A stretch of 64,000 nt of DNA from a virus (IMGVR_UViG_3300002307_000018:192001-256000); one strand, 5' to 3'. Shown: positions 27,041-28,611, counted from the stretch's first letter. Program-made: numbers and translations. Notes: generated by a model from the letters alone, not told the origin.

Positions 27041-27150
27041 ATCATTATTGAACACACTACACGGGAATCGAACCCGCCTACACCGTAAATTAACACGCTG
27101 CTATGTCCATCACTCAGCGTGGCCTACGCCTTTATGTGTTCAATAATGAT
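27041..27150 (-). ncRNA. stalk-closed ncRNA, unit E7, with tRNA-like T arm
   Basis: ATCATTATTGAACACAT / GTGTGTTCAATAATGAT; inner GCGGG-TTCGATT-CCCGT. Confidence 0.75.
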
Positions 27151-27231
27151 GACTCTTGGGGTGCTTCCCAGCAGGCCGATACTTCCCAGTATCATAGAGT
27201 CAACGTACTGCACTTATTGTGTATAATACAC

Positions 27232-27401
27232 AATATTGAAACTCACTGTCAGACCCCTTCCTAAGTGTATTGCGTCTGCTTGCTCACCTTCTGTTTTCTT
27301 GGCGTCTTGAGCGTATCATTTAAGACAGTACTGCGCTGAGCCACTTCAGGCCACGACTTACGTACTCCCTCAGCCAGTAACGGGCAATGAGTTTCAATAT
27401 T
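27232..27401 (-). ncRNA. stalk-closed ncRNA, unit E8
   Basis: AATATTGAAACTCATTG / CAGTGAGTTTCAATATT. Confidence 0.72.
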
Positions 27402-27410
27402 ATGTATGTT

Positions 27411-27503
27411 ACGCAATATTGAAATACACTCTCGACGCCTGGTCCCGTTGCTGCGGCCCACTCGGCGGGACTTTGCGACTTTGAATGTACTTCAATATTG
27501 CGT
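27411..27503 (-). ncRNA. stalk-closed ncRNA, unit E9
   Basis: ACGCAATATTGAAGTACATT / AGTGTATTTCAATATTGCGT. Confidence 0.75.
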
Positions 27504-27508
27504 ACTGA

Positions 27509-27521
27509 TTGTTAAAGAGCG
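27509..27521 (-). promoter_or_regulatory. boxA antitermination element
   Basis: CGCTCTTTAACAA matches rrn boxA (TGCTCTTTAACA) and lambda nut boxA. Confidence 0.7.
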
Positions 27522-27547
27522 TTTACTGCATTACTTACTATACTACT

Positions 27548-27576
27548 ATTATAACTGAATTCTGATTTACTGTCAA
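27548..27576 (-). promoter_or_regulatory. sigma70 promoter for ncRNA/tRNA block
   Basis: TTGACA-17-TATAAT; no ORF before E9. Confidence 0.88.
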
Positions 27577-27592
27577 GAGAATTTAACACTAT

Positions 27593-27784
27593 TTAAAAAT
27601 TAAATTCTCTGACCCAATCGAAACGCTGATTACCAAGGCGCACCCACTTGACTGCGTTAGAGTTTACATCTCCTACATGAGGACAAACACAAACCCACCC
27701 ACGATCCTGTGAGAACTTGACTGTTTCAGCGACACGGATAACTTCAACGATTTTACCGTTCATCTTAGCTACTGTTACAGTCAT
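27593..27784 (-). CDS. hypothetical protein
   Basis: GGAG SD. Confidence 0.7.
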   Translation of the reverse strand: MTVTVAKMNGKIVEVIRVAETVKFSQDRGWVCVCPHVGDVNSNAVKWVRLGNQRFDWVREFNF

Positions 27785-28582: not shown

Positions 28583-28611
28583 ATTATAACTGAATACTGA
28601 TTTACTGTCAA
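28583..28611 (-). promoter_or_regulatory. sigma70-type promoter
   Basis: TTGACA-17-TATAAT. Confidence 0.85.

Follow-up and report, generated by a model that had tools for sequence, protein, structure and literature searches.

The window analyzed here, a stretch of 64,000 nucleotides, comprises bases 192001-256000 of the 264,637-bp IMG/VR virus record IMGVR_UViG_3300002307_000018, which derives from an uncultured giant freshwater phage and is 74% complete according to CheckV. The window holds 31 tRNA genes, every one on the minus strand, and also encodes a ribonucleotide reductase and a nicotinamide phosphoribosyltransferase. Near position 27500, a sigma-70-type promoter is followed by a match to the boxA element of bacterial rRNA (rrn) operons and by three predicted stalk-closed RNAs, E9, E8, and E7, which stand at the head of a long RNA operon; promoter, boxA, stalks, and downstream operon all lie on the minus strand (Table 1). 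No match was returned by a distant-mode blastn search of 50,697 phage records with positions 26900-27620.

Table 1. Features of the leader and the RNA operon, in window coordinates
Feature	Position	Strand	Description
Sigma-70-type promoter	27548..27576	-	TTGACA 27576-27571, 17-nt spacer, TATAAT 27553-27548; 12/12 match
Initial transcribed leader	27522..27547	-	TATAGTAAG-like block common to related leaders; no boxB-type hairpin; predicted unpaired except for a 2-bp contact
rrn-type boxA CGCTCTTTAACAA	27509..27521	-	Single match in the record; fits GYTCTTTAANA; unpaired in the predicted fold
E9	27410..27504	-	22-bp stalk, arms 27504-27483 and 27431-27410; 51-nt structured cargo; 5' arm 4 nt past boxA
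E8	27215..27418	-	Arms 27418-27385 and 27248-27215, 34 nt, 85% complementary; cargo of ~136 nt; fold of -63 kcal/mol; adjoins E9
E7	27041..27150	-	Arms 27150-27135 and 27056-27041, 16 nt, 100% complementary; 16-17-bp stalk; 78-nt cargo
Candidate 38-codon ORF	26899..27015	-	Sole frame of the 2.57 kb preceded by a Shine-Dalgarno sequence; downstream of E7
Rest of untranslated operon	24987..26895	-	tRNA-Asp, Glu, His, and Tyr; E6-E2 (26116-25153); tRNA-Asp and Glu
Two protein genes	22974..24969	-	291-aa TctC/Bug-family protein and 377-aa protein of no assigned family; no terminator found between RNA block and genes

The promoter

The promoter that an earlier, sequence-only reading of this DNA had proposed at this site is borne out by its full match to the sigma-70 consensus on the minus strand, and transcription is predicted to start near 27541. 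Perfect promoters of the form TTGACA-N16-18-TATAAT occur 20 times in the genome, compared with 0.30 expected from composition, and within 20-35 kb the seven promoters that score at least 11/12 are all on the minus strand, the one transcribed; given this excess and this placement, the phage clearly uses host-type promoters. Judged by eye, the promoter at 27576 is the only one of the 20 that leads to a boxA and noncoding RNA, and most of the other 19 have a ribosome-binding site followed by an ATG no more than a few dozen nucleotides away. Most of the 20 (for example those at window positions 28611, 27576, 22960, 8761, and 3783) also have in common an extension of the form TTGACA-n-TAAATCA, which suggests that they form a single phage promoter class.

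Identity and structure of the boxA leader

A boxA was indeed found where the sequence-only reading had put it, about 25 nt after the promoter; the exact gap to the -10 element is 26 nt, which places the motif about 20 nt into the predicted transcript. CGCTCTTTAACAA is the sole match with at most one mismatch on both strands of the 264,637 bp. Positions 27521-27509 score 12/13 against the Escherichia coli rrn boxA 13-mer TGCTCTTTAACAA and 11/11 against GYTCTTTAANA, a gammaproteobacterial consensus that may not be that of the host. Baniulyte et al. give this sequence as the BoxA consensus for nearly all gammaproteobacteria (PMC5725501).

We consider the chance that the match arose by accident beside a real promoter to be negligible. 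The search was post hoc, and four further GYTCTTTAANA matches in the genome, which lie inside coding sequence, do look like chance. The expected number of exact 12-mers, however, is only 0.054 for the whole genome and about 1e-4 if just the sequence within 60 nt of a perfect promoter (20 in all) is considered, and the motif stands in the same place in nine other leaders, which are not near-identical copies (mean column identity of 68%, with indels, in the alignment described below).

For comparison with bacteria, 120 rrn leaders were fetched by TCTTTAAMAA alone, 115-145 nt ahead of the 16S start. The bases preceding this core were GC or GT in 105 of them, and the resulting 12-mers were GCTCTTTAACAA (58 leaders), GCTCTTTAAAAA (20), GTTCTTTAAAAA (14), and GTTCTTTAACAA (13). 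These four forms are exactly those of the phage leaders, the window's own 12-mer among them, and the organisms behind the rrn leaders with the same 12-mers are mostly Gamma- and Betaproteobacteria, including Burkholderiales.

The boxA is unpaired in both the minimum-energy and the centroid folds. No hairpin of the boxB kind was found in the 20 nt ahead of boxA at 27521, and a boxC sequence (TGTGTGGG/UCUGUGUGGG) is absent from the leader; at the place equivalent to boxC lies a conserved 5' helix strand, with its arm core ATATTGAAG 10-11 nt past boxA. Leader and E9 together fold with -48 kcal/mol (z = -5.6), a value reached by none of 200 shuffled sequences. The other tRNA sub-clusters of the same phage were searched for boxA, and none has the motif. 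The 264.6-kb record, ~74% complete, contains no match to a NusB profile (PF01029).

A family of stalk-closed RNAs

The sequence-only reading had E9, E8, and E7 following boxA directly, which holds for E9 and E8; E7 is set apart from E8 by a 64-nt spacer. The E8 helix comprises at least 23 bp, and the E7 cargo contains a tRNA-like T arm. Exact copies of the arms ATATTGAAGTACA and TGTATTTCAATAT are confined to the minus strand and to 21.6-27.5 kb of the window. When viral contigs were scanned with the stalk arm CCATATTGAAGTACA, which yields a set independent of boxA, more than 112 loci were recovered, many of them with arm pairs 50-140 nt apart. The arms ATATTGAAGTACA/TGTATTTCAATAT define an RNA family with variable cargos, which spans 21682-27504 of the window and occurs in more than 112 viral contigs. 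Across 125 nonredundant elements, the median helix span is 22 bp, with 87% of the helices reaching at least 20 bp, and the median cargo length is 55 nt. An Rfam search of the whole window at gathering thresholds, and of positions 24900-27650 with E values up to 5, returned only tRNAs and noise. The Rfam families mir-653, SCARNA4, and 7SK were rejected as assignments for the stalk RNAs, all being far below threshold; the stalks fit no Rfam family.

In tRNA-oriented phage loci, the non-Watson-Crick stalk pairs read on the tRNA strand comprise 128 G.U versus 17 A.C, and the ratio is inverted on the other strand; double compensatory changes were seen at several stalk positions. On account of this strand bias, the compensatory changes, and the helix span, we take the stalks to be RNA helices of about two turns that are cotranscribed with the tRNAs. 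The stalks adjoin tRNAs within 0-3 nt. In relatives, the ACCA end of a tRNA often doubles as the first four bases of the next stalk arm.

A helix of about 22 bp, or two helical turns, has the size of an RNase III substrate. Whether the stalks are cut by this enzyme is, judging from their sequence, a question on which the probabilities are evenly balanced. No phage gene matched an RNase III profile (PF14622) in the 264.6-kb record, ~74% complete, and such cleavage would therefore need the host enzyme. Alternatively, the stalks may be protective helices or sites for a sequence-specific protein, with the RNAs freed by tRNA processing (RNase P, RNase E/Z, exonucleases) and boxA working in transcription as proposed below. 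This is a serious possibility, although we lean away from it. The close junctions with tRNAs, including the shared ACCA in relatives, mean that tRNA processing alone could free the RNAs; the phage record encodes no RNase III; and the arm sequence is conserved, beyond what pairing demands, across more than 100 contigs, whereas RNase III has little sequence preference. The last point suggests that a partner other than RNase III recognizes the arm sequence. Cleavage by RNase III, on the other hand, would fit helix lengths that cluster tightly around the substrate size, any cell with RNase III should cut an AU-rich duplex of 22 bp, and, as no tRNA adjoins E9 on the 5' side, its release from the leader would require an endonuclease.

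Content of the operon

From the predicted start (~27541) to the ATG of the next real gene at 24969, the operon runs for 2.57 kb almost untranslated, and this block holds six tRNAs and eight stalk RNAs. The claim of the sequence-only reading that no ORF intervenes is nearly right, in that no frame with a ribosome-binding site lies at E9 and E8; a 66-codon GTG frame (27461..27261), the only minus-strand frame there, does run across both without such a site. Farther downstream, the candidate 38-codon ORF is preceded by an AAGGA ribosome-binding site and would encode a peptide whose C-terminal half is hydrophobic; a Pfam search with it gave no match.

No terminator-like site was found in a consensus scan of the minus strand from 27500 to 22960, the position of the next perfect promoter, and the RNA block is probably cotranscribed with the two protein genes behind it. 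The first of them (24094-24969), directly behind the RNA operon, encodes a 291-aa protein matching the TctC/Bug family of periplasmic binding proteins (PF03401, E = 3e-14). This family is greatly expanded in Burkholderiales, and the gene is thus a possible hint at a Burkholderiales host. Directly after the promoter at 22960, and ahead of a tRNA-Gly, lies a gene (22678-22878, minus strand) whose 66-aa product matches Hc1, a chlamydial histone H1-like protein (PF07432, E = 8e-14).

A search of the operon for C-rich, G-poor (rut-like) 80-nt windows with a C/G ratio of at least 1.6 found none; a need for Rho protection is therefore not evident from the sequence. A role in the speed of transcription or in folding may be as important as protection from Rho.

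Conservation in related loci

Forty loci that can be oriented by their stalks (384 kb) were gathered without reference to boxA. GYTCTTTAANA occurs in them 26 times on the stalk strand versus 5 times on the opposite strand, and a reversed-motif control gave 3 and 5 matches, respectively. The spacing from boxA to the arm core is 10 nt in eight cases, as it is in the window, and ~92 nt where one tRNA lies between.

We aligned ten related metagenomic leaders of the type in which boxA runs directly into a stalk. The only invariant columns are the -35 and -10 elements, G-TCTTTAA-AA, and the arm core ATATTGAA. Substitutions within boxA are confined to Y2 and N10, the positions that are free in the bacterial consensus; indels vary the distance from the -10 element to boxA between 15 and 27 nt, and the cargos are unrelated. 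Conservation in relatives had been named in the sequence-only reading as a check on the proposed site, and both this invariance and the strand bias of 26 versus 5 show that the boxA is conserved. Related phages have in common a whole module, consisting of the TAAATCA spacer, the TATAGTAAG block, boxA, and the linker CAGACGC, which is also found duplicated (two copies in locus L018). Part of the conservation among the ten leaders is therefore due to common descent. Past boxA, the linker, located at 27505-27508 in the window, reads TCAGAC..CAAT in most relatives and TCAGTACGCAAT in the window, which recalls the enterobacterial/gammaproteobacterial rrn sequence ATCAGACAAT; this likeness to the rrn boxA-boxC linker may reflect chance, constraint, or capture of a host leader.

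boxA leaders among viral contigs and cultured phages

A scan of viral contigs with the pattern TTGACA-N16-18-TANAAT-N15-45-GYTCTTTAACAA matched at least 115 contigs, versus 2 when the boxA was reversed, a result on which the common descent of the module in the ten aligned leaders has no bearing. This count bears on a different account of the conserved motif, in which it is no Nus site but part of a phage-specific module that is recognized by a phage protein, serves as an entry site for RNase E, or tunes promoter escape, its likeness to boxA being a coincidence or a captured rrn relic. Such an account would agree with the sharing and duplication of the whole module among related phages, where some of the conservation is inherited, with the lack of a rut-like window in the operon, and with the absence of the motif from the other tRNA blocks of the phage. 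We nevertheless regard it as improbable: the same 11-12-mer recurs in the same position in unrelated leaders that differ in their spacers, their hairpins, and the genes downstream, variation is seen only at the two positions left free by the consensus, and the four phage variants are the common variants of bacterial rrn leaders.

Among the matches listed, 85 leaders are nonredundant, and 76 of these have enough downstream sequence to show what follows. About half (35/76) lead to tRNAs or stalks on the same strand: a same-strand tRNA lies within 120 nt in 22, more distant tRNAs follow in 11, and 2 run directly into a stalk. In 19 leaders the first tRNA begins 5-18 nt past boxA, and in 15 of the 22 (loci L114-L226) it is tRNA-Glu(UUC). 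A ribosome-binding site and an ORF come next in 22/76 of the listed leaders and something else in 21/76; an opposite-strand tRNA follows in none of the 76. A hairpin between the -10 element and boxA is predicted in 56/86 of the leaders listed, compared with 22 after shuffling, most commonly with a GAAA loop. A hairpin ahead of boxA is the rrn order (boxB, then boxA), unlike the lambda order. As in suhB, boxA stands beside a ribosome-binding site, here followed by an ATG, in ~22 viral leaders (L120, L140, L174, L187, and others), which may employ boxA in a different way, within phage mRNAs.

The order of these elements also bears on whether the site is a nut site of the lambda type, at which boxA would act only in concert with a boxB hairpin carrying an N-like protein of the phage, so that antitermination would be under phage control and not a plain use of the host rrn pathway. 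The boxA of lambdoid nut sites has the same consensus (PMC2800207), and some of the roughly half of viral promoter-boxA leaders that have no tRNAs downstream among the matches listed may be nut-like. For the window, we think a nut site very improbable. No small GNRA-type hairpin lies past boxA, where the next structure is the 22-bp stalk with its 51-nt cargo; the hairpins of other phage leaders stand ahead of boxA; and boxA alone is sufficient in rrn (PMC10250234). The four small proteins encoded upstream lack an arginine-rich N terminus, and searches of the flanking small ORFs against PHROGs and Pfam found nothing resembling an N-type or RNA-processing protein.

The arrangement of promoter, boxA, and tRNAs is absent from eight cultured tRNA-rich phages (T5, T4, KVP40, RaK2, XbC2, BDU-MI-1, Pyxpy01, and Synechococcus B3), in which GYTCTTTAANA matches are at control level and inside coding sequence. 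We conclude that the device is optional and belongs to some phage groups. A related tRNA-array leader (L177) compared with cultured phages gave matches at single tRNAs only. Xanthomonas phage XbC2 (L249), a cultured 368-kb phage, is the only one of the eight with a promoter-like site and a boxA, which do not stand ahead of tRNAs: near its left end, at position 1336 on the plus strand, TTGCAT, 17 nt, and TAGTAT are followed by GCTCTTTAAAA. This site could be used as a cultured test case for phage boxA. In the full-text literature outside subscription journals, we found no published account of boxA ahead of phage tRNA or noncoding RNA operons.

Discussion

Our results suggest that the site is an rrn-type transcription leader, operating without N or boxB, for antitermination of an RNA operon by host Nus factors, with the stalks either cut by RNase III or protecting RNA ends. 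We consider this interpretation likely. The rrn-like architecture proposed in the sequence-only reading thus finds support in its transcription half, where the fit to the consensus, the predicted unpaired state, the conservation, and the strand-specific enrichment all agree; its processing half, release of the RNAs by RNase III, is more tentative. The occurrence of the same leader in many other uncultured phages suggests that the host rRNA transcription machinery is probably used. Nus-factor binding, antitermination, and RNase III cleavage are steps that we infer from sequence features.

In the mechanism that we propose, host sigma-70 RNA polymerase would initiate at the perfect promoter, and the single-stranded boxA, emerging about 20 nt into the RNA, would be bound by host NusB/NusE (S10). 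The bound boxA would then nucleate an rrn-type antitermination complex with NusA, NusG, and SuhB, and the polymerase modified in this way could read the 2.57-kb block fast and without Rho-dependent or pause-induced loss. Transcription would go on into the two protein genes behind the RNA block. The 5' arm of the first stalk would take the place held in bacterial rrn operons by boxC and the 5' strand of the leader-trailer helix. The ~22-bp stalks would probably be substrates of host RNase III or else closing helices that protect RNA ends, and stable small RNAs would be released together with the adjacent tRNAs.

One can go further and suppose that the leader copies the whole of the rrn logic, such that NusB/NusE bound to boxA holds the 5' stalk arm at the exit channel and the polymerase chaperones the closing of the stalk, and that a promoter-proximal boxA is a general rule for the expression of tRNAs and small RNAs in aquatic phages. 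We consider this broader proposal unlikely.

boxA and the Nus factors were long regarded as devoted to rRNA and the lambdoid phages, a view recently extended to suhB and CRISPR arrays. What this case contributes is the proteobacterial form of the signal, the direct boxA-stalk junction that mirrors boxA-boxC, and controlled counts showing that such leaders are common in viral metagenomes. If the sites work as they do in rrn, many phages need host NusB, NusE, and SuhB for their tRNAs and small RNAs, which would amount to a dependency on the host as well as a regulatory connection with growth-rate control. The boxA variant could then cheaply mark the host phylum of uncultured phages, and the boxA-stalk junction would be a compact natural model for the chaperone role proposed for the rrn complex.

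Comparison with known systems

The closest structural parallel is the bacterial rrn leader, in which, as described by Warner et al., boxB, boxA, and boxC lie just past promoter P2 (PMC10250234). In that system, boxA is necessary and sufficient for formation of the antitermination complex, boxB is dispensable, and boxC lies 18-19 nt past boxA, where it forms part of the 5' strand of the leader-trailer helix (25-40 bp); according to one model, this strand is retained close to the RNA exit channel by NusB-bound boxA until the complementary strand comes out (PMC10250234). The rrn complex contains NusA, NusB, NusE, and NusG as well as SuhB and S4. Like the rrn leader, the phage site lies just past a strong sigma-70 promoter; many rrn leaders of Gamma- and Betaproteobacteria have exactly its boxA 12-mer; a conserved 5' strand of a long helix follows a few nucleotides later (22 bp in the phage, 25-40 bp in rrn [PMC10250234]); the linker TCAG(A)C..CAAT resembles rrn ATCAGACAAT; and the leader heads a long, untranslated, highly structured operon of stable RNAs that include tRNAs. 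It differs in being phage-borne and in having neither a boxB hairpin nor a boxC sequence. Its helix closes a 51-nt RNA, whereas that of rrn closes 1.5 kb, and one boxA serves several tandem helices, with no second boxA deeper in the operon. Its products would be tRNAs together with small RNAs that have no assigned function.

Compared with known RNase III helices, such as the pre-16S and pre-23S stems and the sites in T7 early mRNA, the putative processing stalks of the phage are likewise ~22 bp long, AU-rich, and formed by the flanks of the RNA to be released, and they show a pairing signature at the RNA level. Unlike those sites, the phage stalks have an arm sequence that is conserved across many phages. 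The tRNA cluster of phage T4 contains the stable RNAs C and D, which have no assigned function and are cotranscribed with the tRNAs. The association of small RNAs with phage tRNAs is common to both; the T4 cluster has no boxA leader and no shared closing stalk.

As in lambda nutL and nutR, a phage would here use boxA with host Nus factors for processive antitermination. Unlike a lambda nut site, the leader has no boxB past boxA and no N-like protein detected among the small proteins encoded upstream, it carries the full rrn boxA in place of lambda's shortened CGCTCTTA, and it precedes stable RNAs, whereas lambda's precedes an mRNA operon.

Outside rrn, boxA is also found in the 5' untranslated region of suhB (PMC5725501). 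That boxA is chromosomal and promotes termination by blocking translation, unlike the role proposed for the phage element. boxA is reportedly also present in the leaders of CRISPR arrays (work of Stringer et al. in eLife, 2020), where it is said to protect a long untranslated array of repeat units from Rho. CRISPR arrays are chromosomal, and the units of the phage operon are tRNAs and stalk-closed RNAs; the boxA of CRISPR arrays is nonetheless the closest functional analogy to the leader of this phage operon.
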